Shown here one piece after another: positions 13,732 through 54,321 of a DNA stretch of 64,000 bases. The stretch is from contig JANPFC010000054.1 in assembly GCA_031423235.1 (NCBI GenBank), forward strand, positions 13,691 to 77,690. Direction: 5' to 3'. Origin of the DNA: Chlamydiota bacterium (GTDB taxonomy: Bacteria > Chlamydiota > Chlamydiia > Chlamydiales > SM23-39). The translations under genes and the position numbers were made by a program. Numbering within the stretch: the stretch's first letter is position 1; every line of letters starts with the position of its first letter. The notes under the pieces were generated by a model, which was given only the letters and a program-made list of their open reading frames with translations, had not been told where the DNA came from and made no database searches.

Positions 13732-13978
13732 CGGGGGAAGCCCCCATAGGCCTCAACCTAACTTCTCGCAAATTGCTGAAGATTAATAAACTATATCAGC
13801 AAAATAAGGTGGCAATTAAGCTGTTATAGAAAAGAGAAAACAATTCACAGAGTTACACAGAGAAGAAAGGGAGCTACACAGAGGAAAATAATATATTTTT
13901 CTCTGTGTAGCTCCCTTTCTTCTCTGTGTAACTCTGTGATTTTCCTTTCTTAGGTTGAGGCCTATGGGGAAGCCCCCG
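13732..13978. repeat. Nested palindromic element A: ~30-bp outer inverted repeats enclosing a perfect 39-bp-stem hairpin
   Basis: Outer arms are 13732-13761 and 13950-13978 and share ataggcctcaacctaa. Inner arms 13845-13883 and 13901-13939 are perfect reverse complements, extendable to about 46 bp around a 3-nt loop. Confidence 0.9.
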
Positions 13979-13983
13979 CTGCT

Positions 13984-16322: not shown

Positions 16323-17849
16323 TTATTCTGTCTCCATTTTGACTTCAAAAGCTTTAGTTGGAACCCTAAGCACTGCCAAGAGATCCGCTTCCGATTGGAC
16401 GCGGCGCGGTCCACCCCGTAATTCTTCGATTCCGCTGCTCACTGGAGAATCATGAGGCGGATCGCTAAATAAGTTACGAACAGAGCTGCCGCTGGTTGAT
16501 CGGGCAACTGAAGGAGGAGAACCTCTAAGAATACCATCTCTTTCGTCTTCACTCAGTCGAGCTCCAGTGACAGCAGGCGAGAAACGGCCAATTACATCGA
16601 ACGGTTCCGCAGACACCCTAGAATTGGATCTAATCAGGGCTGCCAAATGGGCTCCATACATCTGATCGGCATTGGTGATCAAATCCCTCGAAGTCGGGCA
16701 CATCTCCATTTTAACGCAAAGATCGATAAATTTTTTCAAGCTTGTTACCCGATCATCCAAAGCCAACAATTGTTCTTTCAGTACAAGGCGATCCGTTTTG
16801 GAAATGTCTACTCTTGGATGATCCTCCATGATCTGCTTTTCTTGAACCGCTTGGACAACAAAGCCTCCATGATCTATTCCGACATCCTTGCCCTTGTGTT
16901 CCTTGGGAGGGCGGACGTCCTCTTTAAATGCCATGAGGCTCTCAGATGGTACATCTGCATACTCCACTTTTTCCTTCTGCAGATCTGCAAGCAGTTCAAA
17001 AACGGAAGCATCGATCGCATTAATCGACGTTGACAGCTCTTTGAGCTTTTCGGGTGAAATAGCTACTCTTGCCAGCGGATCGCGCAAAAAGGGTAAATGG
17101 GTAGCAGCAACCACTTTATTCGGACTTTGGCCAGGACCTGGAAGGAGCCGTAAAGGCATGATATCTTCAACGTCGACAAACTGACTCCCAAACATTCCAT
17201 CGAGCTTCCCATCTCTCAATCCCAAAAGAAACGCGAGAAAGGTCATGCTGCCAATATCATCAGCCGTGATTTTTTCATCGGACGAAACAAAGGGCTCCAA
17301 AATACCAGTTAAAGTTAATGGTTCGTCTTTCGGTTCTTCCAGAGGCCTCTTGTAGATCTTCACGTTTCCATTCCAAAGCTCTTCGCTCATCTCATCTTTC
17401 GGAAGGCGGGGATTTGCAATCGTACAATAGACGCCTGGAACGACATGCCGCTCAAGTCCCATTTTGAGAGCCATTTTACGGGCCAGAGCTTCAGTAATCA
17501 TCCGCCTTGTTCCCACTTTAAAAACGGCAAATTTTTTCCCATCTGCAGACAAAAAGTAGACGCCTGAGTCGTCCTTCGATGGGGTGATCTTGACTCCATC
17601 ACTACACGCCATCTGCATCATCGGGATCAAACTTTCATGGGCACGCCTATCAGCTACACTGACGCCGAGCCTTCCGAGGAGAGGAATAGAAGATCCGGGA
17701 GAGGCGCTCTTCAAGGTCTGAGCTACTCTGGCCCATATGTCTCCGATTCGCTCTGGCGCAGATAATTTGCCTGGAATGCGATCGAGAGGTGCTTCTAAAA
17801 AATTTGGGTTCAAATATACAGAACATTTATTGACAACTGCAGAGGCCAT
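16323..17849 (-). CDS. Hypothetical protein with PI3/PI4-kinase-like (protein-kinase-like fold) central domain and Ser/Pro-rich C-terminus
   Basis: GVYFLSADGKKFAVFKVG resembles the nucleotide-binding strand and Lys block of PI3_PI4-kinase-family proteins. LLGLRDGKLDGMF and FVDVED sit where the catalytic and activation loops would be. Function is tentative. Confidence 0.5.
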   Translation of the reverse strand: MASAVVNKCSVYLNPNFLEAPLDRIPGKLSAPERIGDIWARVAQTLKSASPGSSIPLLGRLGVSVADRRAHESLIPMMQMACSDGVKITPSKDDSGVYFLSADGKKFAVFKVGTRRMITEALARKMALKMGLERHVVPGVYCTIANPRLPKDEMSEELWNGNVKIYKRPLEEPKDEPLTLTGILEPFVSSDEKITADDIGSMTFLAFLLGLRDGKLDGMFGSQFVDVEDIMPLRLLPGPGQSPNKVVAATHLPFLRDPLARVAISPEKLKELSTSINAIDASVFELLADLQKEKVEYADVPSESLMAFKEDVRPPKEHKGKDVGIDHGGFVVQAVQEKQIMEDHPRVDISKTDRLVLKEQLLALDDRVTSLKKFIDLCVKMEMCPTSRDLITNADQMYGAHLAALIRSNSRVSAEPFDVIGRFSPAVTGARLSEDERDGILRGSPPSVARSTSGSSVRNLFSDPPHDSPVSSGIEELRGGPRRVQSEADLLAVLRVPTKAFEVKMETE

Positions 17850-17909
17850 TTTAGTGATATCCTATCTTAAAATCTGGGATAGGATACCCTATTTTGGCTT
17901 AAAATGTGA

Positions 17910-19019
17910 CTATTTTTGGAAAGTGATCGTGTCTAAAACCGAATCGACGCCGTTGAGGACCGACCCCAAGCAATCAACCCCAAATGAGCTAGCATTGAGA
18001 ATTCCATTGGCAACACCTACGGTGGCTTTCGCCGTCAAGTTAACAGTTCCCTCAACGAGAGGAAAAACGACGTAGTTTAAAGTTTTATCTACTGCGCCGA
18101 CCATAGTTTTTCCGGTCCACAGCACAGAATTTCCAATACCCTCTGCTATGGATCCTCCTACATTGATCACCCCAATTGCAGCCGATTTAGCCAGAGGAAT
18201 TCTCGTAACAATTGCCGTACCAAGGCCAATTGCAGCCGATTGAGGAGCCGTTAAGCCAGCAGCAATAGCGGCAGCTCCTGCCCCTACTCCCAACAGGTTT
18301 TCAGCTCTCCGCAATGGAGGGTAAAGGACAGCGAGAGCTGCAGCGGTTCCTACCGCGCCAATAACTGGAACAGACTGTGTGAAGCCTGAAGTCAACAAGC
18401 CGGCTTCGGCTCCTACTAACAGAGCCAACGGCTTTTTCAGTGCTTCCAAAGGAAAGAAGAACTCGAAAGAGCTAAGTTCGGCGACCTTCTTTTCCAATCG
18501 ATCCACTTCAGATTGATTGCCTAAAGCCCTATACAGGGACATTAAAACTTTCAGAATGATTATTTGAAGGCTCGAGAAAAGCCATGTCTTATTTAAAGCA
18601 GTTTCTTCAATCTCCTTCAGCGCGGCTGTATCGAGGTTTGCCATTTTCATTTTATCCGCGACTTTTTGGACTGCGATTTGAGATTGTAGTGAGCCGCATG
18701 TACCGATGGCCCCAACAAAATCGTTAGCTTCAATTTCACGGTCTAGAATCATATTTAACGCATCCGTTTTACCAAGAAACATGTCGTTGGCAGCACGTTT
18801 TGCACCGTCGAGATCGCCCTTGCCCAGGCATACAATAACTATTTTCTTAAGAGCTGCATCTCGATCAAAACCAACAAAGATCCTATTGGCTGCCTGCCTT
18901 GCCCCATTGATATCATTTTTCTCAATCCTCTTATCAATGATTTTCTTTAAAGCATCATTATCATCGAAAAAGCTATGGAACATTGGAAATTCAGACCGAA
19001 ATGCTGGAGAGGAAAACAT
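17910..19019 (-). CDS. Hypothetical protein: N-terminal ~35-aa helical repeats plus Gly/Ala-rich hydrophobic C-terminal half
   Basis: Repeats of the form D..GA..AAN..F.G.D.AL..I. The C-terminal region is rich in small-xxx-small (glycine-zipper-like) stretches. Confidence 0.6.
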   Translation of the reverse strand: MFSSPAFRSEFPMFHSFFDDNDALKKIIDKRIEKNDINGARQAANRIFVGFDRDAALKKIVIVCLGKGDLDGAKRAANDMFLGKTDALNMILDREIEANDFVGAIGTCGSLQSQIAVQKVADKMKMANLDTAALKEIEETALNKTWLFSSLQIIILKVLMSLYRALGNQSEVDRLEKKVAELSSFEFFFPLEALKKPLALLVGAEAGLLTSGFTQSVPVIGAVGTAAALAVLYPPLRRAENLLGVGAGAAAIAAGLTAPQSAAIGLGTAIVTRIPLAKSAAIGVINVGGSIAEGIGNSVLWTGKTMVGAVDKTLNYVVFPLVEGTVNLTAKATVGVANGILNASSFGVDCLGSVLNGVDSVLDTITFQK

Positions 19020-19196
19020 AATACCACCTTATTTTTCCACCAATTTTAAACTAACGACAAATAAAAACACACAACATAAACTATTAATAATTACTAATTA
19101 CATTTTTATTTTACAAATAAACACCTATCAAAAAAAGATAGGTCTTAGACGAGCCCTATGCTATATTGGGACCAACCGTTTAACAGGTGAGTTTTT

Positions 19197-19313
19197 ATGA
19201 CAAAAGAAGTAATCAAGCACAGCAAAGAAGAGAGAAAAAAACCGACTCTTACTCCAAAAGAGAAGAAGGCGAAAAAGGCAGAAAAGAAGCTGAGCAAAAA
19301 CTCAAAACCTTAA
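19197..19313 (+). CDS. Candidate 38-aa Lys-rich small protein (below ORF-track cut-off)
   Basis: ATG at 19197 is preceded by AGGTGA (19183-19188). Product is MTKEVIKHSKEERKKPTLTPKEKKAKKAEKKLSKNSKP. Its stop overlaps the stop of the convergent gene. Confidence 0.3.
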   Translation: MTKEVIKHSKEERKKPTLTPKEKKAKKAEKKLSKNSKP

Positions 19314-20110
19314 TTCACTGAAATCGTCTGCTTAACGTCGTTGAACATGCCGGGGACTAGCTTGTTTGCCTCATCGAGGAGTTCAAGCCGGATTGTGTGG
19401 CGGCCGCTTTTTAGCCCGTACAGATAGTAGGGTTGCCAAGAAGTGAGCGTTCGGATCACCTTCCCGTCTACTGTGAGGCGTACTTTATAGCCATCAGGAC
19501 TAAGCTCGGCGTTGCTCACATAAAAGTCGAGCAGCACGGGCTTGTCCGCCCTTAGAGGCATTTGATCGCTCGGCTCATTGTAAGTGATGTAGGGCTGAGA
19601 GAGATCCATAGATGGGTTATTTTTCTCGCTGCCCACGAAGAAGCTGATGGCAGCAAAAGTGTTATCCCCTTTCAGGCTTTCGCCGAATGAACGTGCCGGG
19701 AACATCCGGATCGTGTGCATCCCTGAGCTGAGATTGAAGGGAACTTCGAATTTGTAGCTCATATCGTAATAGTAGCCCCCGTCATCAAATGGATCGAGTG
19801 CAGGCTCATTGATAGGAAAATAGGGGTGGTTATCAATCACAACATGAACAGTCTGACCCATTTTGGTCTGTACGATCTCGGAGGCCCGCTCAAACTGCGA
19901 GGCGGCGCCTAATGCATACCCATCGATCCTGAATTGAATCCAAGTTGGGCTGCCAACCACCTGTCCATTCTTGGGAACTGCGATTTTCAGGACAATCGTG
20001 CTAGACTCAGGGGTTCGAGCCACTCCCATTATCCGGATATTAGGGTCCACAGGTTCAGGAGTTTTGGCAGCAATCATTGCAAATAGCAGGCTGGCTAATA
20101 GGACGTACAT
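19310..20110 (-). CDS. Exported hypothetical protein
   Basis: ATG at 20110 is preceded by GGAGAG and gives the signal peptide MYVLLASLLFAMIAA. The ORF-track start at 20161 lacks an RBS. Confidence 0.65.
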   Translation of the reverse strand: MYVLLASLLFAMIAAKTPEPVDPNIRIMGVARTPESSTIVLKIAVPKNGQVVGSPTWIQFRIDGYALGAASQFERASEIVQTKMGQTVHVVIDNHPYFPINEPALDPFDDGGYYYDMSYKFEVPFNLSSGMHTIRMFPARSFGESLKGDNTFAAISFFVGSEKNNPSMDLSQPYITYNEPSDQMPLRADKPVLLDFYVSNAELSPDGYKVRLTVDGKVIRTLTSWQPYYLYGLKSGRHTIRLELLDEANKLVPGMFNDVKQTISVN

Positions 20111-20162
20111 GGTTCTCTCCGCTAGATTCAGTCTAATATCCTCTTCCCTTAATTTTTGCAAA

Positions 20163-20325
20163 GAGCTTGTGAAAGAATTGGCAACTCTGCTGATCTTTGA
20201 AAGATTTTTCGCTTTGCTTGCATCGAACTTAATTCAGTAAACATTCCATGTTACTGAGTTAAGTTCGATGCAAGCAAAGCAAAAAGATTCAAAAAGCAGC
20301 CAGTTGACGATTCTTTCACAAGCTC
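20163..20325. repeat. Palindromic element B (~163 bp, ~78-bp imperfect arms, 10-nt loop)
   Basis: Left arm 20163-20240 and right arm 20251-20325 are near reverse complements (gagcttgtgaaagaat...catcgaacttaa.tcagtaa). Lies in a divergent intergenic region. Confidence 0.9.
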
Positions 20326-20364
20326 AAACTTGCAAGAAAATAGGGTCCTTGGTTAGATCAAGGA

Positions 20365-20841
20365 ATGAACTCAAAGAAATTTTTCGACTTCCTCCTCGTT
20401 TTCGGCACAGCCCTTTTCATGCTTGGAGTCCTCTTGTTTTTCAAACAGGGCGAGATTCCCCTCATGTCGGCAAACCACCATGCAGGCCTTGTTGCGCAAA
20501 ACACCAACACCTACCTTGGCCCTAGCCAAAAGATCCCAGGCAATCCGCAACTCGTTCGGGTGCAGATCTTAGTGTATAATGATCCGAATCCGAAAGGGGT
20601 TACGATCGACAGCGCCGATTTCGATGGAACGGATATTCCGCTCAAACCGCGCGATATCTATGGATTTCGTGGCCAGGCGAGCTTTCAGAAGTCTCCTGGC
20701 AAGTACAAGCTCCGTTGGGAAGTGGAGAGGGATCAGAAGAGCTGGCCTCGATCGGTGACGCATGAAGAGGAAGTGATCCTTGATGCGCGCGATCTTTGGA
20801 TTCAGATCACCATCACAGGCGACAAAGCCGAAATCTCCTAG
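20365..20841 (+). CDS. Hypothetical N-terminally membrane-anchored protein
   Basis: 158 aa with TM segment FFDFLLVFGTALFMLGVLLFF. No motif recognised. Confidence 0.55.
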   Translation: MNSKKFFDFLLVFGTALFMLGVLLFFKQGEIPLMSANHHAGLVAQNTNTYLGPSQKIPGNPQLVRVQILVYNDPNPKGVTIDSADFDGTDIPLKPRDIYGFRGQASFQKSPGKYKLRWEVERDQKSWPRSVTHEEEVILDARDLWIQITITGDKAEIS

Positions 20842-20850
20842 ATATTGCCG

Positions 20851-21444
20851 CCATTACACATTTTACAGGATTCGCATCGCATTCGCGAAGCTTGCAGGAT
20901 GTCCTCTCGCAAGCGAGAGGGCAGGATGCGCGAGGCGCGCTTACAGGATTTGGGGATGCCCCATACCCCAAACAATGGGCCCATTTTTTGCTGACGCAAA
21001 AAAGCTTACCGGATAGAGAAATTTCTTCTTCAAGCCAATCTATTTCAGACAACTCCCATCTAGCTCGCTTGAGAAGAAACTTCTCCACCGGACGCCTTGA
21101 ACTTCGTTCAAGTAAGGGCCCTTCTACCGTGTAAGCATGACCGCTACTTTCGGCGATGTGGCCCCGCTTTCAGATCTGCGGGGCCCTGACTTGAACGAAG
21201 TTCAAGGCGTAGGCGATGATTTTTTTTTCTCAAGCCAGGTGGATGAGAGGTTGCTAACTAAGTGGGCTTGAAGGAAAAAAATGAGTTCGCCGAACGCTTT
21301 TTTGCGTTAGCAAAAAATGGGCCCTTTGTTTGGGGTATGGGGCATCCCCAAATCCTGTAAGCGCGCCTCGCGCATCCTGCCCTCTCGCTTGCGAGAGGAT
21401 TATCCTGTAAGCGCGTTTCGCGCATCCTGTAAAAGGTGTATTGG
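20851..21444. repeat. Palindromic element C: ~590-bp near-complete palindrome (two inverted ~290-bp halves)
   Basis: Arms 20861-21005 and 21296-21434 are near-perfect reverse complements. Inner inverted repeat is 21093-21121 / 21180-21209. Each arm carries several local hairpins, e.g. cctctcgc-aa-gcgagagg. Fills a convergent intergenic gap. Confidence 0.9.
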
Positions 21445-21468
21445 CCTCAACAAAGCTGGCCCTCATTT

Positions 21469-22311
21469 TTAAGACTGGGAAATCCACTCGGCGATCTGGT
21501 CGGTCACGCGCCGCGAATAAAGCATGCTTGCATGTCCTAGATCTTCGTAAATATAGTGGTTGTTTTGCTTGATCACTGCAGAATGGCCCGGCACAACAAG
21601 CTGATCGCTCTTCGTTGCAATGTGGTGGAACCGAATATCTCTACTATCTGCTATGCCTGCGCGTAATTCTTGCAGTAGGTCTGAGTTCGGCTGCATCTCG
21701 CGAGCATTCGGGCCGAGGCCTATGTGCGCCACCGGCGTGCCATTGAGAGGAGAGGCAATTGTAATGACATCGGTAACTGTACCGCGGGGAGCAAGCTTTG
21801 CAGCGTACCACGAACTGACAAGTCCGCCCATAGAATGGCCGATCAGGATGAGATCTTTTCTACCCGTGGCTTTCGCAATCTGCTCCGCTTTCACTTTGAC
21901 TTTCTCTCCGTATTCGCGGATCGATTTAAACGGATGGCCCAAACTGATCGTGTATACAGGGCCGAGTCCAAGCGACTCGAGCCTCTTTTTCGGAAATCGC
22001 CAAACAGTGCTGTGATTCATGTATCCGTGTACGAGTAAGATCGGCTGCCCGTTTCCATGAACTGTTTCTCGAGTGGGAATAAATCGCATCGCCGCAACGC
22101 CTAAAAATGCGGGCACTTCGAACGTCATAGCGTGCGTCCAGTGGATGAGGCGGGAAAATGGCAAGCGGGGCGCAGCTAAATTGAGAAGCTGAATTCCTCC
22201 AAGCCAAGAGAAGGCAATCACTCCAATGGGGAATGCTTCGGTGTATGCAAATAGCGCAGCTAGCGTTAGAAATAAACCAGCTGTAAATGGAACCTTGTTA
22301 ACTTGCTTCAT
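21469..22311 (-). CDS. Alpha/beta-hydrolase, lipase/esterase-like, N-terminally membrane-anchored
   Basis: Nucleophile elbow GHSMGG (LILIGHSMGGLVSSWY) and oxyanion-type LVHGY. Two N-terminal hydrophobic segments. Confidence 0.8.
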   Translation of the reverse strand: MKQVNKVPFTAGLFLTLAALFAYTEAFPIGVIAFSWLGGIQLLNLAAPRLPFSRLIHWTHAMTFEVPAFLGVAAMRFIPTRETVHGNGQPILLVHGYMNHSTVWRFPKKRLESLGLGPVYTISLGHPFKSIREYGEKVKVKAEQIAKATGRKDLILIGHSMGGLVSSWYAAKLAPRGTVTDVITIASPLNGTPVAHIGLGPNAREMQPNSDLLQELRAGIADSRDIRFHHIATKSDQLVVPGHSAVIKQNNHYIYEDLGHASMLYSRRVTDQIAEWISQS

Positions 22312-22356
22312 AAGAATTTGGATGATAGCATCAAAATTTTAATGGAGGCAAGATTT

Positions 22357-23322
22357 ATGCAGAAGTCACTGCTAGTTGGAATCGATATCGGAGGAACAAA
22401 AATTTGCGTCTGCATTGGCGATCATGAGGGAAAAATCTTAGCTTCGAAACGGCTCCTCACTCAACCGTTGAAGGGATCGAAAAATGGTCTGAAGGCCATT
22501 GCAGATCTCATTCGGGAAATACTTTTGGAAGAAAAAATCGATTTAAATCAGATCGGAGCCATCGGAATTTCTTCGCCCGGCCCCATCTCAACCAAAGAGG
22601 GGAAAATGCTGAAGCCGCCCAATCTTCCAGGTTGGGAAAACGCCCCTCTAGTTCAATACTTCAGAGATGCATTCCACAAAAAAGTGGTGATGAATAACGA
22701 TGCGAACGCAGCTGGAGTTGCCGAATTTCAATTCGGCGCATCTAAGGGGACTCCCAATTTGATCTATCTTACATGCAGCACAGGAATGGGCGGCGGCGCG
22801 ATTGTCAATGGAGTGCTCCTGCAGGGCATTTCCGACACTGCAGCCGAAGTGGGCCACTATGTCCTCGATATCAATGGCCCTGCTTGTCCATGCGGCCAAA
22901 AAGGGTGTTTCGAAGCCTATTGCGGAGGGGCCGCCCTTGCAAAGAAAATGCAAGAGGAGATCCTTCGCGATCATATCAAAACCGACATCCTCGTCGAAGC
23001 GAATGGGGACATCAACCATGTCGATGCTGCTTGCCTAGTCAATGCGGTGAAAAAAAAGGACAAATACGCCCTTAAAATATGGGATGAATTCATCATGCGG
23101 CTCGCCCAGGGAATTGGCGTTGTGCTGATGAACTTCAACCCTGAAGTGATCATTCTGGGTACGATCGCAATCCACGCAGGGCCCCTTTTACTCGAGCCCT
23201 TGAAAAAGCAGCTTCCCCGATTTGCGTGGAAAGAGAACATAAACGCCTGCCGGATTGAGGCAAGCGGCATTGGCGACAGGATCAGCGAACTCAGCGGTCT
23301 GGCCCTAGCCAAATCTACTTAA
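22357..23322 (+). CDS. glk: ROK-family glucokinase
   Basis: ATG at 22357 follows GGAGG. Contains LLVGIDIGGTK, the ATPase fold, and the ROK zinc motif GHYVLDINGPACPCGQKGCFEAYCGG. Confidence 0.85.
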   Translation: MQKSLLVGIDIGGTKICVCIGDHEGKILASKRLLTQPLKGSKNGLKAIADLIREILLEEKIDLNQIGAIGISSPGPISTKEGKMLKPPNLPGWENAPLVQYFRDAFHKKVVMNNDANAAGVAEFQFGASKGTPNLIYLTCSTGMGGGAIVNGVLLQGISDTAAEVGHYVLDINGPACPCGQKGCFEAYCGGAALAKKMQEEILRDHIKTDILVEANGDINHVDAACLVNAVKKKDKYALKIWDEFIMRLAQGIGVVLMNFNPEVIILGTIAIHAGPLLLEPLKKQLPRFAWKENINACRIEASGIGDRISELSGLALAKST

Positions 23323-23977
23323 TGTGCTTCTCTCCATATGACCGGTCGCCGGCATCGCCGAGACCTGGAATGATGTAGCCTTTGCTATTGAGCATCGGAT
23401 CAACCGCAGCAGCGAAGATCTTGATTGAGGGATCGTATTCTAATAGACGGGCAATTCCCGGTTCAGACGCGATGGCGGCTACTACGAAGATCCGCTTTGG
23501 ATGATACTGTTCTATAATCTGGATCGCATCGAGTAAAGAGCCGCCGGTGGCGAGCATAGTGTCTGAGAGAATTACGGACCGATTTTCCAACTTTGGAAGC
23601 GAGATGTAATCTATTTTCGCCTTAAGAGTCTCTTCATCGCGCGACATGGCGAAGAAGCCAACTTCAGAATTTGGAAAGATCTTGTGGATGCCCGCATTCA
23701 GTGGAAGACCAGCTCTCAGAATTGTGACTAAGGCGGGTTTTTCAGCAAGGAGAGGATGTTTCGCTACAGCTCCAGTGAGAGTTTCAATCTCTGCTTCTTC
23801 CGAATTCAGTTCTTCGAGGATATCGAGGGCCAAATATTCGCCGATTTTTTCGAGAGCATCGCGAAAGTGTTTTTGATCTGTTTGAGGATTCCGAATTTCA
23901 TAGACCAATTGATGCAGCGCTTGCGGCTGAGCAAATAGCGCACCGCATGAGAAAACAAGAACAAGAATTTTTTTCAT
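23315..23977 (-). CDS. upp: Uracil phosphoribosyltransferase
   Basis: PRPP-binding loop ILSDTMLATGGS, ILRAGL, and uracil-binding C-terminus GYIIPGLGDAGDRSYG. Confidence 0.9.
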   Translation of the reverse strand: MKKILVLVFSCGALFAQPQALHQLVYEIRNPQTDQKHFRDALEKIGEYLALDILEELNSEEAEIETLTGAVAKHPLLAEKPALVTILRAGLPLNAGIHKIFPNSEVGFFAMSRDEETLKAKIDYISLPKLENRSVILSDTMLATGGSLLDAIQIIEQYHPKRIFVVAAIASEPGIARLLEYDPSIKIFAAAVDPMLNSKGYIIPGLGDAGDRSYGEKHIK

Positions 23978-24047
23978 AGCTACCCTCTGTTGAGTGGTAG
24001 CATGTTATGGAAAGCAGTGAATTTCAGGCGAGAAAATTTACACTCTC

Positions 24048-24980
24048 CTAAGGGAGACGGACTCTGAGCGTCTGGCATTTTCCGTGTATATCAATCGACT
24101 TGCACGCCGCCGGCACAAGATACGTCATCCCCGCGTGAAATGGCTCCACATGAGAATCTACGCTAATCGTCCCCTCCCCTTCCATGCAGAAAAAGAGCTG
24201 GAATGACTTTGGAATCCGGGCCAAATGTAGGTCATTAAACACATCGATCCGTTCGACAATGAAATAGGGTCCCGAGACCAATGTGACAAGCTGGTGATGG
24301 AGATCGCTGCTCACATGTTTTGGAGCCACCTTGGAGTGGCTCTTGTCATCCCAACGAATTGAGGCAAGGCCTTCCACGAGGTGCAATTCGCGCGCTCTGC
24401 CCCAGTCGTAGAGCCGGTAGGTTGTATTGGAATTTTGCTGCACCTCATAGATCAGCGCTCCTGCGCAAATAGCATGAACCCGGCCGCCTGGAATATTGAC
24501 CGCTTCTCCCTTTTTAAGATCTAGTTTGTCGAGTAGATCTTCGGCCTTCTTCCCCTTGATGCCCTTTTTCAGCTCTGCTTCATCCACTTCCGGCTTTATC
24601 CCAGCATACACAGAGCCTTCATCGAGCATCACCCACATCTCATCTTTCGGCTCGCCCTTAAGTTTGACGGCAGTCGTCTCGTCAGGATGAACTTGAATAC
24701 TGAGATTTTCTTTCGCATCGATAATCTTGGCAAGGATCGGAAACCGAGTCCCTGTTTGTCCCGCTCCGAGGAGATCTTCCCCCATCTCAAGGACCAGTTC
24801 GTGGAGCGTCTTCCCCTTTAAGGGGCCGTTCATCACAACGCTCATTCCATCGGAGCGGTCGGAAACTTCCCAGCTCTCCGCCACCTTGGGCAGATCGATT
24901 TTTCGATGGAACTTTTTAGCGATCCGGTCCCCTCCCCACACGTAAGTTTGGTAAATCGGTTCAAATCGAATGGGGTACAT
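24048..24980 (-). CDS. manA: Type I mannose-6-phosphate isomerase (cupin)
   Basis: 310 aa. YVWGG near the N-terminus, metal-site block LSIQVHPDE, and a later HAI-type block (GRVHAICAG). Confidence 0.8.
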   Translation of the reverse strand: MYPIRFEPIYQTYVWGGDRIAKKFHRKIDLPKVAESWEVSDRSDGMSVVMNGPLKGKTLHELVLEMGEDLLGAGQTGTRFPILAKIIDAKENLSIQVHPDETTAVKLKGEPKDEMWVMLDEGSVYAGIKPEVDEAELKKGIKGKKAEDLLDKLDLKKGEAVNIPGGRVHAICAGALIYEVQQNSNTTYRLYDWGRARELHLVEGLASIRWDDKSHSKVAPKHVSSDLHHQLVTLVSGPYFIVERIDVFNDLHLARIPKSFQLFFCMEGEGTISVDSHVEPFHAGMTYLVPAACKSIDIHGKCQTLRVRLP

Positions 24981-26259
24981 GGCGGATCCCTATGTTAGCA
25001 GGTGTTGATTCAATAGCTTTTCTAAATTGGTCCAACGTATTTTCAAATGCAGCAAGAGATTTAGAATCAATGTGAGGAAACTGATTTTCCCCCTTCGATT
25101 CAAGAGTTTCAATACATTCGGAGATTTTCATTTCAGGCGTATGATGGGCAGGCACATATCCGCCTCTGGTTTCATGGAGAAGCTCGCAATCAACCAGCTC
25201 TTGCAAGAGCTGTCTGCTTAAGGATGCCGGAATCTGGTAGCCTTTTGAGAGGATCTCTAGAGATAGATACCCTTTTTTAACGGCTAAATGAATAATCCAG
25301 AGGCTGAGGAGCCTTTTAAAACTGTAGCTCATCCTCGTCGCAAATCCTTCGAATTCATGCTCCTCAAGCGTTTGGTGGGCGCAGCTAACCTCCGCTCCGA
25401 GGAGGATGAGAAACCAACTGACCTGAATCCAAATGAGAAATAGAGGCAAGGCAGCCATGCTTCCATAAATGGCCCCATAACGGTTTACCCCAATCTGAAA
25501 GTAGATATATCCCCACTGGACAATCAGATAGAGCCAGCCAGCAAAGAGTCCCGCGAGCGCGGCAGAGCGGAAACGGACATGGGTATTGGGCATGACGAAA
25601 TAAAGAAAGGTGAAAAGGAGCCAAAAAAGACCGTAAGGAACTAAATTGACAAGGAACAAGAGCCAGCTAACCGCCCAGCCAGATATAGGAAGGACCCGAA
25701 TCCCGATCTCCAAATACTCGACGATAAATACTGCCATGCTGCTAGCAACAACAAAAAGGATCGGCCCAATCAGCATCAAGGCAAAGTAATCGCTGATAAT
25801 CCGTTTCCAGGAGCGGAGGTTTTTCACTCCCCAGATCTGATTGAGAATTCCTTCTAAATTACTCAGTAGCAGTGCGACAGTTAAAAAGAGGATGACAAGG
25901 CCCACTCCTGCAATGACCCCTCCCCTCGCCTGCTCAAGAAAGGAGTCGGCGTACTTAAAGATCTCAACGAGAGCTGTGTTCTGATCGGGAAACCTCTCTA
26001 AAAGCTCAGATCTCAGCGTGTCGTGATACCCAAAGCCGCGTGCAACTGCAAACGCCATAGCGATGACCGGCACAATCGACATGACCGTATAGTAAGTTAA
26101 GGAAGATGCACTTAAGCTGCACTTATCTTGGTAAAATCCGCGGAGGGAAAGATAGGTAATGCGGAGCCACTTGAGCCCAAATCTCCGAAAGCCCTTCTCC
26201 TGGCTTAAAGGAAAATTCCAAAGAGTCTCGGAGAAGTAGTGTTTAATTTTTTGCAGCAT
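24961..26259 (-). CDS. YihY/BrkB-family membrane protein with C-terminal soluble extension
   Basis: LSASSLTYYTVMSIVPVIAM, YGSMAALPLFLIWIQVSWFLILLGAE and 6 TM helices are typical of YihY (ribonuclease-BN-like annotation). Confidence 0.75.
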   Translation of the reverse strand: MLQKIKHYFSETLWNFPLSQEKGFRRFGLKWLRITYLSLRGFYQDKCSLSASSLTYYTVMSIVPVIAMAFAVARGFGYHDTLRSELLERFPDQNTALVEIFKYADSFLEQARGGVIAGVGLVILFLTVALLLSNLEGILNQIWGVKNLRSWKRIISDYFALMLIGPILFVVASSMAVFIVEYLEIGIRVLPISGWAVSWLLFLVNLVPYGLFWLLFTFLYFVMPNTHVRFRSAALAGLFAGWLYLIVQWGYIYFQIGVNRYGAIYGSMAALPLFLIWIQVSWFLILLGAEVSCAHQTLEEHEFEGFATRMSYSFKRLLSLWIIHLAVKKGYLSLEILSKGYQIPASLSRQLLQELVDCELLHETRGGYVPAHHTPEMKISECIETLESKGENQFPHIDSKSLAAFENTLDQFRKAIESTPANIGIRHVPHSI

Positions 26260-26276
26260 TTACTTAAGATTAGCAA

Positions 26277-26906
26277 ATGATGGATTTTAAAAACCGGAAA
26301 GTTGCAGGGCAAATGCTTGCGGCTGCTTTAGAGAAATATAAAGAGGCCCCGAAAACAATTGCGATCGGCCTGCCGCGCGGCGGAGTGGTCGTTGCAGCGG
26401 AAGTCGCTAAAGCTCTTCATATTCCGCTCGACATCATCGTCCCGCGGAAAATTGGAGCCCCTTACAATGAAGAACTTGCCATTGGCGCAATCGCAGGCGA
26501 TGTGGTTTGGATCGACCAAGCTATCGCCCTAAGCGCCGGCGCCACACCTGGCTACATCGAACGAACCATTGAGAAAGAAAAACGGGAGGCCGAAAGACGC
26601 CTTGCTCTCTACCGGAAAGGAAAACCCCCTCAACATTTTTCAGGATATACCGTTATCCTAATCGATGACGGGATCGCTACAGGCTCTACGATGCGGGCCT
26701 CAATCGCTTACATGAAAAAAAATAGGGTGGACAAGATCGTACTAGCCGTGCCGGTCGCTCCTCCCGATACACTCGCCGCCCTTAATGCTGAGGTTGATGA
26801 ATCCATATGCCTATATTCCCCAGAATCATTCATGGCCGTCGGCCAATTCTACGCCAGCTTTCCCCAAACTGAAGACAGCGAAGTGATCGCCCTCTTATCG
26901 GAATAG
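26277..26906 (+). CDS. Phosphoribosyltransferase-domain protein
   Basis: PRPP-binding motif VILIDDGIATGSTM and N-terminal GLPRGGVVVA. Confidence 0.8.
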   Translation: MMDFKNRKVAGQMLAAALEKYKEAPKTIAIGLPRGGVVVAAEVAKALHIPLDIIVPRKIGAPYNEELAIGAIAGDVVWIDQAIALSAGATPGYIERTIEKEKREAERRLALYRKGKPPQHFSGYTVILIDDGIATGSTMRASIAYMKKNRVDKIVLAVPVAPPDTLAALNAEVDESICLYSPESFMAVGQFYASFPQTEDSEVIALLSE

Positions 26907-26968
26907 TTATTTCATCCTAGTTTATATAAATGTGATAAAATGGAGATGTAATAATATGAGGTTATAAG

Positions 26969-27358
26969 ATGGCAACACAAATAAGCTCTTGGCAAGAATT
27001 ACTGACTATTTTAGGCGAGATGGAAATGCAGCAGAATAATCCATCCGATATGGCAGGCTATGGCTCAAACCCTGTTGAAGACATTGAAGAACAGTTAAAG
27101 AGCGCAAATACAAATTGGAATAAAATTTCGGAAGATCTCGACCAGCTGCAAGGTGAAATGAACCAGATGATTCAAATCGCCACAGCCGGCAAGCTTTTCC
27201 CAGCGAGCGATCCAAACTTCATTAAAGACCTATTGGAGCCAACAGCTGCGTTGATTGGGACTTTGAAAAGTGAAATGGGAACTCCCAATTTTGCTTCGAA
27301 CTTCAAACTTTTTCTTGATGATCTTGGGTATATCAAGCAAGATATCCTTCAAGGATAG
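26969..27358 (+). CDS. Small acidic hypothetical protein
   Basis: 129-aa ORF abutting the next gene (stop 27358, ATG 27359). No motif recognised. Confidence 0.5.
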   Translation: MATQISSWQELLTILGEMEMQQNNPSDMAGYGSNPVEDIEEQLKSANTNWNKISEDLDQLQGEMNQMIQIATAGKLFPASDPNFIKDLLEPTAALIGTLKSEMGTPNFASNFKLFLDDLGYIKQDILQG

Positions 27359-48314: not shown

Positions 48315-48483
48315 CTAGTACCCCACCTTGAAAATTTTCATGAGTTGGGCTGCGTCAAAGCCGCCAACAAATCGACGATCGCAAAGTGTCTAGTATTAAA
48401 CCAATACAAGGCACTTTGCGATCGTCGATTTTTGGCGCTTTCACGCAGCCCAACTTGTGAAAATTTTCAAGGTGGGGTACTAG
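48315..48483. repeat. Palindromic element E (~169 bp; ~73-bp arms, 23-nt loop)
   Basis: Left arm 48315-48388 and right arm 48412-48483 are near reverse complements (ctagtaccccaccttgaaaattttca...). It exactly fills a convergent gap and contains the stop codon of CDS 48480..49286. Confidence 0.9.
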
Positions 48484-50461: not shown

Positions 50462-50737
50462 ATGTTAAAGAAATTCAATACAAAACCGTTAATCATTTCA
50501 TGGCTTACAGCGCTTACGATTTTGATTGGATTTTTGGCCTACAGCCGCATGTCTCCGCCGCAAGAGAAGACCGCCATAAAAGAGACTATTTTTGTTGAGA
50601 GAAACCCAGTAATCATCACCGAAGTACACCGCTGCCATCCTCACTACCGCGTGTACCACCACTACCCCCATGATCATTATCCAAGGCACCACCGCCATGG
50701 AAGCCACTTCAGCTTTTCAATGAACCTATCTCAATAA
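50462..50737 (+). CDS. Small membrane-anchored His-rich protein
   Basis: TM helix LIISWLTALTILIGFLAY, then HRCHPHYRVYHHYPHDHYPRHHRHGSHF. The last codons lie inside palindromic element F. Confidence 0.5.
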   Translation: MLKKFNTKPLIISWLTALTILIGFLAYSRMSPPQEKTAIKETIFVERNPVIITEVHRCHPHYRVYHHYPHDHYPRHHRHGSHFSFSMNLSQ

Positions 50738-50890
50738 AAAGTTTCAGTCGATTTTCTGGTTCTTTTGAGCCGATTTTCGATTCAAATTCGGGGGGTAATA
50801 TACAGTTGTCGATATTGCCCCCCGAATTTGAATCGAAAATCGGCCAAAATAATCCAGAAAATCGACGAAAAATTTTATTGAGATAGGTTC
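50722..50890. repeat. Palindromic element F (~169 bp; arms end in G6/C6 around the loop)
   Basis: gaacctatctcaataaaaagtttcagtcgatttt...attcgggggg / ccccccgaat...aaaatcgacgaaaaattttattgagataggttc. Confidence 0.9.
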
Positions 50891-52890: not shown

Positions 52891-53112
52891 CCTATTATTT
52901 AAGTTAATGCATAAATTTTACAATAAACCACAATTATTTTAAACATAATAAGTTAAATTAAAATATACTAAATTTAAATCTTTAAACACGTCAGGAACGA
53001 TTATTCCAACTAAGACTAACTCACTCAGAATAAGAGGCTATTTGGAGAGCCAGAATTCAAAAAAAATATTTACAACTAATCAGAGAAGGCGGGCGGGTGA
53101 ATTTAAAGTAAA

Positions 53113-53706
53113 TTATATGTACTTTAGGCCGCCTTGCTTTTTGACGATCTGAAGAGCCTCATCATAGCTTTCCTCATGAATGATGTAATGTTTACCATAA
53201 GCCCAACCGGGTTTTCGATACCCTTCAATATGATATCCCTCATATTTGATTTTCCCATTCGCAAAGTAAACGATTGCTGCCTCCTGCCCCAATTGAACTC
53301 TGTCTTTATCCTCAAAGTAGAGACTGATGTTGAGCAAATTACTAACGAATGGGTATACATCTAAATCAGGCCTTACTTCTCCATTGTTATTAATTTCCAC
53401 TGTTAGGTTTTCGGCCACAAACACAATTAACTTTCTTGCATATTCCAATGAAATTTCATCATTCCTGTTTTTCTCAAGGGAATAACTTGCAGCAAAATTC
53501 CCAATCCCGTTTTTTTGATACCCCTCGGGCAAACACCAGTTAAAGCCATATCCGCGAAGAACTAAATCTGTTTCTGGCTTGATTTTTTGAGAATACAGGT
53601 TTAGGAGCTTATATGGAGGTTTCATTTGATAGGGATCTTTCACATCCTTTTTGCACGTACAAGACACCAGGGATAAACAAATTAACAGACAATTAGCAAC
53701 TTTCAT
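53113..53706 (-). CDS. Small lipoprotein, cassette-1 partner copy B
   Basis: Signal plus lipobox MKVANCLLICLSLVSC. About 90-95 percent nucleotide identity by eye to 53722..54321 over the 3' two-thirds. Confidence 0.75.
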   Translation of the reverse strand: MKVANCLLICLSLVSCTCKKDVKDPYQMKPPYKLLNLYSQKIKPETDLVLRGYGFNWCLPEGYQKNGIGNFAASYSLEKNRNDEISLEYARKLIVFVAENLTVEINNNGEVRPDLDVYPFVSNLLNISLYFEDKDRVQLGQEAAIVYFANGKIKYEGYHIEGYRKPGWAYGKHYIIHEESYDEALQIVKKQGGLKYI

Positions 53707-53721
53707 AGACTTCCAAACAAA

Positions 53722-54321
53722 CTACAAATACTTTAAGGTGCCTTGCTTTTTGACGATCTCAAGCGCCTCATCATAGCTTTCCTCGTGAATGATGTAATGT
53801 TTGCCATAAGCCCAGCCAGGTTTACGATACCCCTCAATATGATATCCCTCATATTTGATCTTTCCATTTGCGAAGCAAACAATTGCTACCCCCTGCCCCA
53901 ACTGAACCCTGTCCTTATCCTCAAAGTAGAGACTGATGTTAAGCGAATTGCTAACGAATGGGTATACATCTAAATCAGGCCTCACTTCTCCATTATTATT
54001 AATTTCCACTGTTAGGTTTTCGGCCACAAACACAATTAAATTTCTTGCATATTCCAATGAAATTTTATCATTCGAATTTTTCTCAAGGGAATATTTTGCT
54101 CGAAAATTTGCGATTCCATTCTTATATTCATAATTTTTAGGAACTCCGCAATTAATTCCATAAGAACGGAGAACCAGTTCTGTTTCGGGTTGTATCCGTT
54201 TGGAATACAAATTTATGAGCTTGTAAGGAGGATACATCTGATAAGGATCTTTCACATCCTTTTTGGTTGAGCAGGAAGATCCAACTAGGAAACAAAAAAG
54301 CAAAAAACTAATAAATTTCAT
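53722..54321 (-). CDS. Small lipoprotein, cassette-1 partner copy A
   Basis: MKFISFLLFCFLVGSSC. Its ATG lies 14 nt inside the end of the upstream large gene. Confidence 0.75.
   Translation of the reverse strand: MKFISFLLFCFLVGSSCSTKKDVKDPYQMYPPYKLINLYSKRIQPETELVLRSYGINCGVPKNYEYKNGIANFRAKYSLEKNSNDKISLEYARNLIVFVAENLTVEINNNGEVRPDLDVYPFVSNSLNISLYFEDKDRVQLGQGVAIVCFANGKIKYEGYHIEGYRKPGWAYGKHYIIHEESYDEALEIVKKQGTLKYL

Follow-up and report, generated by a model that had tools for sequence, protein, structure and literature searches.

A near-palindromic 627-nt insertion between two convergent genes of a Chlamydiota bacterium, possibly a MITE-like foldback element at a hairpin turnover hotspot

The 64-kb stretch of Chlamydiota contig JANPFC010000054.1 analysed here (the window) holds, between two convergent housekeeping genes, a nearly palindromic sequence of about 600 bp, Element C, and the question raised by this locus is whether such DNA arrived as an insertion, grew in place, is maintained as a functional structure or is an error of assembly. 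The reading that we favour, and hold with roughly even confidence, is that Element C is a lineage-specific, imported, non-coding foldback insertion resembling a MITE (miniature inverted-repeat transposable element), or a derivative of one, at a hotspot of hairpin gain and loss. On this view it would most likely be selfish, unstable DNA of recent arrival and not a conserved gene or RNA. Element C is a 627-nucleotide (nt) intergenic stretch (20842–21468) that occupies the entire gap between the convergent open reading frames (ORFs) 20365–20841 (plus strand) and 21469–22311 (minus strand), as had been proposed from the sequence; the TAG stop of the 158-aa gene on the left (20839–20841) directly adjoins it, and the TAA stop of the hydrolase gene on the right lies at 21469–21471.

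The same junction in related genomes is informative in this respect. Contigs of relatives carrying both flanking genes were found via exact-protein look-ups, and in all of them the 158-aa gene is the syntenic convergent neighbour of the hydrolase gene (junctions in Table 1). In L161, positions 5448 and 5449 are adjacent where the window has 20847–21473 between them (blastn), and this is the sole large indel over the 12.3 kb aligned. Among nine genomes there are seven distinct junction sequences, four of them with a hairpin or palindrome, and no counterpart of Element C is found at this junction in the eight related genomes. The relative with the closest flanks, L004, carries a different element, which contains a 32-nt-arm GACGC-repeat palindrome and bears at each end an inverted repeat of 14 nt, ATATTGCCGC(C/A)ATT; it has in common with Element C only 34–40 nt at the left end plus this 14-nt inverted repeat. 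The shared stretch, beside the 158-aa gene, reads ATATTGCCGC(A/C)ATTACA(T/C)ATTTTACAGGAT(G/T)CGC, and the far end of the L004 element carries ATATTGCCGCCATT inverted. The interior of Element C shows no similarity beyond shuffles to the spacers of L004, L167 and L168. From the varied junction states and the unmatched interior, Element C is restricted to the window's own lineage, and the junction is a hotspot at which palindromic sequences unrelated to one another come in, expand, replace each other and are lost. The flanking-sequence tree, ((((window, L004), L161), L166), L167, L168), (L006, L162), L007, places the gain of Element C after the split from L161. The L161 junction can be derived from an element-bearing ancestor by one deletion that keeps the first 5 nt of the terminus (ATATT). 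Alternatively the site may be almost empty, in which case TATT would have been duplicated; TA would fit equally well.

The architecture of the insertion is that of one multi-hairpin unit present twice in inverted orientation. Matched against its own reverse complement, Element C aligns over 20850–21445 (76.9% of 611 columns, E 1e-122), which confirms the near-complete ~590-bp palindrome of two inverted halves described in the original prediction; the full imperfect palindrome spans 20845–21450 (606 nt), and all the nested inverted pairs returned by a repeat search have a common centre at ~21151. The left arm and the reverse-complemented right arm are identical in 217 of 278 columns (78%), with 9 gap columns, and this identity is a mosaic, amounting to ~70% in the outermost 55 nt (7-nt indel included), 98/100 in the core (20904–21003 versus 21298–21397), ~63% in a diverged segment (21004–21091 versus 21211–21297) and 29/30 in the inner block. 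The earlier description of the outer arms as almost perfect therefore holds for ~20899–21005 / 21296–21399 and not for the outermost ~40 nt, where the indel lies; the interior inverted repeat is present (21092–21121 / 21181–21210, 30 nt, 97%), as are all the short local hairpins named, at the positions given. Those of the left core are CCTCTCGC/GCGAGAGG, GCGCG/CGCGC, TTTGGGG/CCCCAAA and TTTTTTGC/GCAAAAAA, accompanied by a GGGCCC palindrome. The mirrored ORFs also exist, as a trivial by-product of the symmetry, and are without homologues. The motif CAGGAT occurs four times per arm in a single orientation within each arm, at a density of 12.8 per kb in Element C versus 0.5 per kb across the remaining window, and a 28-nt unit occurs twice in the right arm at 50-nt spacing (21352–21379 and 21402–21429). 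A direct-orientation homology of the diverged segments was considered and rejected, their relation being inverted.

We infer a sequence of events in which at least one arm would have been brought in, once the lineage had separated from that of L161, by transposition or recombination and as part of a unit bounded by the inverted termini ATATTGCCGCCATT...TTTTACAGGAT. A foreign origin is suggested by the failure of one arm to match anything else in the window or the related contigs. Since then the arms would have been part homogenised (the 98% core) and part diverged, and replacement of modules would be a further change to which such unstable DNA is subject. The DNA of Element C may be able to extrude a cruciform and to be deletion-prone, which would explain the turnover at the junction. 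By symmetry, the transcripts of both genes would enter the same ~280-nt multi-hairpin 3′ tail, and read-through would give a ~280-bp hairpin; any effect would most likely be incidental, as a barrier to 3′-end decay or by insulating the two convergent units of transcription from each other. Proteins may bind subterminally at the oriented CAGGAT arrays, which are candidate sites for this.

A mobile origin of Element C is made plausible by the multi-locus modular palindromic elements that this lineage hosts. A self-complement scan finds at least five further long intergenic palindromes in the window (Table 1), four of them of 163–169 nt and the one at 13842–13942 nested within an outer repeat (13732–13760 / 13951–13979). 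No sequence is common to Element C and these five, and the five are also unrelated overall to each other. The palindrome at 35637 recurs at 89% identity in other species (L006 5468–5561, L162 2354–2531, L163 827–1004 and L164 1–92), where it lies upstream of the 158-aa gene, a site at which the window holds the 20163-type element, and its identity exceeds that of the surrounding genes (76–84%). The L006 copy is a short form that lacks the extra symmetric inner layer of the long form, and the differences between copies are symmetric ones, compensated across the two arms. On comparison of these sequences, the 35637-type palindrome looks like a mobile family. Beside it, at 35827–35861, the 50722 palindrome is represented by a solo arm: these 35 nt repeat its outer arm (50721–50755) in inverted orientation at 97% identity. 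The 35637 and 48315 palindromes also have a common inner module, TCGATTTTnGGCGCTTT...GCCCAA (about 35740–35790 and about 48420–48460). The outer arms around this module differ, which points to modular or nested construction. Homopolymer tracts that could be slippage-prone are found at the apex regions of two palindromes, A9 G7 at about 35697–35712 and G6 / C6 at about 50790–50825.

Compared with bacterial MITEs, Element C has terminal inverted repeats (20845–20875 and 21420–21450, 84% complementary), lacks a transposase or conserved coding capacity in a six-frame search, and has filled and empty orthologous sites, the latter having 3 nt in L161, 7 nt in L166 and overlapping stops in L006, L007 and L162–L164. 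The filled-site/empty-site criterion is in use for bacterial MITEs (Delihas 2011, PMC3184786). In the six-frame search, the reading frames (one, then the other five concatenated) gave no homologue among 5.8 billion proteins, at low power, since that database lacks even the ORFs of the window itself.

Several observations weigh against this reading. The insertion of 627 nt, with its palindrome of 606 nt, is large for bacterial MITEs, which are generally under 200 bp and reach up to about 400 bp (PMC3184786). Multiple copies are a defining feature of MITEs, yet every part of Element C proved single-copy in the window, to which the search of the source genome was confined, and had no copy in GTDB representatives, JGI metagenomes, IMG/VR, plasmids or phages, the JGI, GTDB and IMG/VR searches being exact-pattern scans. 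The candidate target-site duplications, TA (20839–40 / 21470–71) or TATT (perfect only in L004; TATT/TTTT in the window), are short, AT-rich and ambiguous. The right terminus is degenerate in the window, with 11/15 matches followed by 18 unpaired nt. The L004 allele, at least, is not a clean insertion into an empty site, since one arm of its palindrome is homologous to the 69-nt spacer of L167 (score 55 versus 21 ± 3.4 in shuffles), so that palindrome growth in place probably also occurs at this junction. Finally, the interior 20932–21420 is backed by the submitted assembly only.

The copy searches were carried out at several levels. There is no further copy of Element C or of any of its hairpin modules in the rest of the window, nor in about 45 kb of related contigs. 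Outside Element C the window also lacks the terminus motif; a weak resemblance to it at 49–65, in sequence that is probably coding, was put down to chance. A scan of GTDB species representatives, which do not include the source genome, with GCGCGNNNCGCGCTTACAGGAT gave 2 chance matches, in high-GC genomes, and the terminus pattern AWTACAYMTTTTACAGGATKCGC had no match in JGI metagenomes or IMG/VR. The CAGGAT-array pattern returned at least 120 + 33 matches, all unrelated by blastn and probably short-period repeats. Three further modules had no match in IMG/VR, and blastn against plasmids and phages gave no match. A literature search on MITEs or palindromic repeats in Chlamydiae found nothing specific. 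Of the identities first suggested, the large MITE stands insofar as Element C is inserted, non-coding, bounded by inverted repeats and faced in relatives by empty or otherwise filled sites, and the head-to-head structured repeat insofar as there are two inverted copies of one multi-hairpin unit; evidence of a repeat family was found for neither, nor a second copy of the unit elsewhere. Neither half matched a known RNA family in Rfam, and no end of an insertion sequence was recognised in searches of plasmids, phages and the rest of the window.

Growth of the palindrome in place, by one inverted duplication after another (through template switching or synthesis primed by a hairpin) together with recombination and with no transposition, would make Element C single-copy, immobile junk until the next deletion. 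We consider this origin unlikely, while noting that it has observations in its favour: the arm that L004 carries twice is single-copy sequence in the spacer of L167, the 35637-type element occurs in a short form (L006) and in a long form with an additional symmetric layer, every sub-repeat of Element C has its centre at about 21151, and no second copy was found. It is opposed by ~277 nt of one arm that are without a source in the flanks, in the window or at the junctions of relatives, and the lack of a local source for the arm implies that the raw material was imported. Furthermore, the arms differ by 22%, yet a strain already without the interior of Element C differs by only 4% in the flanks; as the divergence of the arms exceeds that of the strains, a recent inverted duplication in place is hard to fit.

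A second alternative is that Element C is a selected RNA or DNA structure, in which each arm is a functional multi-hairpin module (a stabiliser in the 3′ untranslated region, a terminator/insulator or a small RNA) serving both convergent genes. Folded as RNA, the whole of Element C reaches −407 kcal/mol (z −28 versus shuffles) and, as DNA, −245 kcal/mol (z −22); the left half alone (20842–21150, arm plus part of the spacer) has z −5.9 and the right half alone (21151–21468, arm plus part of the spacer plus tail) z −5.4 versus shuffles. The arms folded separately give a homologous set of hairpins, including the helix of the diverged segment, which is intact in both arms with 3 compensated pairs and 0 broken. 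RNAalifold on the two arms predicts 69 consensus pairs, every one of which is formed in both arms, with 4 compensated pairs, 3 of them within the ~63% segment. Differences between the arms fall mostly in locally unpaired columns (same/different 128/10 paired versus 101/69 unpaired, Fisher p = 5e-12), also when columns 161–252 only are considered (28/6 versus 27/31, p = 9e-4), and some hairpin stands at the junction in 4/9 relatives. These statistics derive from n=2 sequences and are partly circular, the structure being predicted from those same two, and the shuffle control is uninformative (38/500). Changes that preserve the symmetry occur in the 35637-type element too and may stem from a copying mechanism instead of selection. 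Moreover, 5/9 relatives are counted as spacer-less, including the ~90% identical L161 with its 3 nt, which implies that the structure is dispensable.

Signals for such a function are likewise lacking. Rfam at gathering score gives no family anywhere in the window, and a relaxed scan of 20700–21600 gives only miRNA-hairpin models at 18–32 bits (gathering scores 57–140) and a snoRNA model at 12 (gathering score 50). No promoter-like or terminator-like site lies within 20842–21468; two terminator-like sites in the scanned region, located within genes or upstream of them, are no more than shuffles give. The non-coding RNA gene that had been suggested accordingly finds no evidence in Rfam or in a promoter-like site. 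Taken together, maintenance by selection seems improbable.

A more speculative extension of the favoured reading, which we rate as doubtful, is that Element C and the window's other long intergenic palindromes may form, in environmental Chlamydiota, an undescribed class of foldback elements that are modular and built of hairpins. In such a class the same junctions would be reoccupied, inner modules exchanged between strains and hairpins kept by symmetric, compensated change. If true, this would call for a mechanism of mobilisation or copying able to read hairpins in single-stranded form, e.g. one that resynthesises an arm by fold-back on its partner, or alternatively a protein that binds the oriented CAGGAT arrays, and the elements may double as interchangeable 3′-end modules for convergent genes.

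An assembly artefact, either a foldback chimera or a mis-joined inverted repeat, is very improbable. Two unitig-based Logan contigs of the same sample (De Bruijn contigs, run SRR20217180), both 100% identical to the window, end inside Element C: L165, covering 17208–20931, ends at 20931, and L001, covering 21421–29690, at 21421, and the interior between them is in no independent contig, as an artefact might have it. However, a chimera predicts identical arms and mirrored flanks, whereas here the arms match at 78% and carry indels, a unique centre separates them, and on either side lie two different genes that are neighbours in all relatives. Both outer junctions are confirmed in the separate contigs L165 and L001, with the termini pointing outwards, and the left junction is also present in another strain. 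L165 ends exactly where 31-mers become common to both arms, as is expected of a true inverted repeat. The diverged arms, unique centre, differing syntenic flanks and independent junction contigs make an artefact unlikely, and the foldback error raised as a possibility in the original prediction is not indicated by the assembled sequences. The end of L001 lies 22 nt outside the identical core, and no shared 31-mer in the assembled element accounts for it; possible reasons are a fall in coverage, a variant strain or the presence of the terminus in a further copy.

That Element C is an invertible, phase-variable segment flipped by a recombinase is scarcely credible, as the geometry of near-identical (98%) ~100-nt inverted repeats (20904–21003 / 21298–21397) around a ~290-nt inner segment fits, but there is no promoter-like site, the element lies downstream of both genes, a flip of the roughly symmetric inner segment would change little, and the adjacent genes encode a ROK kinase, a UPRTase and similar proteins, not a recombinase.

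Table 1. Coordinates of Element C, its parts and flanking genes, the other palindromes of the window, and the same junction in relatives
Feature	Coordinates	Strand	Remarks
Whole insertion, Element C	20842–21468	.	absent from L161 by blastn
Nested inverted pair	20845–20875 / 21420–21450		31 nt, 84%
Nested inverted pair	20902–21045 / 21256–21399		144 nt, 87%
Nested inverted pair	21053–21079 / 21223–21249		
Nested inverted pair	21092–21121 / 21181–21210		30 nt, 97%
Left terminus, ATATTGCCGCCATTACACATTTTACAGGATTCGC	20842–20875	+	sole part common with L004 allele; first 14 nt are the L004 terminal inverted repeat
Left arm, 277 nt, series of local hairpins	20845–21121	+	repeat search, arm alignment
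Four direct CAGGAT motifs	20866–20949	+	starts at 20866, 20895, 20922, 20944
GC-rich hairpins between left CAGGAT motifs	20903–20920, 20928–20940		
Core, left copy	20904–21003	+	98% identical to right copy
Diverged segment, left copy	21004–21093	+	own local hairpin TTTCTTCTTCAAGC / GCTTGAGAAGAAA, CGG/CCG closing
Inner inverted repeat, left copy	21092–21121	+	holds hairpin CTTGAAC-TTC-GTTCAAG, plus GGGCCC
Central spacer, unique, non-palindromic, 59 nt	21122–21180	.	
Spacer hairpin GGCCCCGC-10 nt-GCGGGGCC	21160–21185		mainly within spacer, 5 nt reaching into right arm
Right arm, 270 nt, inverted left-arm copy	21181–21450	-	
Diverged segment, right copy	21209–21297	-	homologous local hairpin, 3 compensated base pairs
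Core, right copy	21298–21397	-	98% identical to left copy
Four CAGGAT motifs, minus strand	21352–21429	-	plus-strand ATCCTG at 21352, 21374, 21402, 21424
18-nt tail, right arm to hydrolase stop	21451–21468	.	without left-side partner
Left flanking gene	20365–20841	+	158-aa protein, N-terminal hydrophobic helix, no Pfam family (ORF list)
Right flanking gene	21469–22311	-	280-aa alpha/beta-fold hydrolase, Pfam Abhydrolase_6 / PGAP1
Further palindromes, intergenic	13842–13942, 20163–20325, 35637–35804, 48315–48483, 50722–50890		
Junction in L004 / L005	L004 2074–2262 / L005 992–1054		flanks 95.8% identical; different 189-nt palindromic element
Junction in L161			~90% identical, collinear over 12.3 kb; CAG TAA TAT CTA GGA, 3-nt spacer
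Junction in L166			about 85% identical; 7-nt spacer
Junction in L167	L167 4478–4546		about 84%; 69 nt, GACGC-repeat hairpin
Junction in L168	L168 882–1009		about 84%; 128 nt, own hairpin with 16-nt arms, unrelated
Junction in L007, L006, L162–L164			more distant; stop codons overlapping

In the surroundings of Element C, homologues of the hydrolase carry the names Parachlamydiales or Chlamydiota, and no recombinase domain is found among the neighbouring genes. The window shows no GC-skew switch that would mark a replication origin or terminus, it contains zero tRNA genes, which speaks against tRNA-linked integration, and no tandem repeats are found by TRF. Elsewhere in the window, two adjacent paralogous genes (53113–53706 and 53722–54321) form a direct repeat of ~610-nt period at 53099–54265 with 75–88% identity. 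Short 95–96% direct repeats (29662–29707 / 35590–35635 and 29923–30001 / 30873–30951) lie in and near a 160-aa ORF and a 1359-aa ORF, and the repeat at 29662–29707 coincides with the other end of contig L001.

Element C reveals no new gene, RNA family or defence system and is in this sense a structural curiosity, its value being that of a well-resolved case of rapid palindrome turnover and of tolerance of a ~600-bp near-palindrome. If the reading as an imported foldback insertion is right, the junction would be a clean natural example of fast turnover of long palindromes in a bacterial chromosome, and this uncultured Parachlamydiales lineage would tolerate near-palindromes of ~600 bp, which are unstable in model bacteria. 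On a practical level, long palindromic elements break short-read assemblies and create spurious mirrored ORFs.

Among known systems, bidirectional intrinsic terminators are similar in their position between convergent genes and in placing hairpins in both transcripts, whereas Element C is without a GC stem and U-tract, exceeds the size needed twentyfold and is missing from most relatives; in the features tested for an intrinsic terminator, an Rfam family and an inverton, Element C fails each. The REP, BIME and REPIN elements of Proteobacteria are likewise mosaics of small GC-rich hairpins in alternating orientation that favour the gaps between convergent genes and are able to protect upstream mRNA. 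REP units are, however, 20–40 nt long, present in hundreds of copies and tied to RAYT transposases, whereas every hairpin module of Element C is unique within 64 kb, and Element C is not assigned to this group. The Rickettsia palindromic elements, and similar selfish hairpins of intracellular bacteria and organelles, are likened here in kind and not by sequence: they too are selfish palindromic DNA, in an obligate intracellular lineage, modular or nested in construction and fast to turn over. The Rickettsia elements differ in being about 100–150 nt long, multi-copy and often within genes. Eukaryotic Foldback (FB) transposons offer an analogy of form in their very long inverted arms of short sub-repeats around a small unique centre, although they belong to another domain of life and have no mechanistic link. 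By analogy, Element C appears most like a bacterial MITE or foldback element, as a putative, orphan member of that kind. It differs from bacterial MITEs such as the Correia elements of Neisseria and the cyanobacterial Nezha in its 627 nt, in an inverted repeat that spans nearly the whole element rather than short ends, and in that no second copy, clear target-site duplication or parent insertion sequence was found. Like them, it is non-coding and intergenic, has inverted termini and a very stable long RNA stem-loop, shows filled and empty sites among close relatives, and lies at gene 3′ ends, a location also possible for MITEs (PMC3184786).

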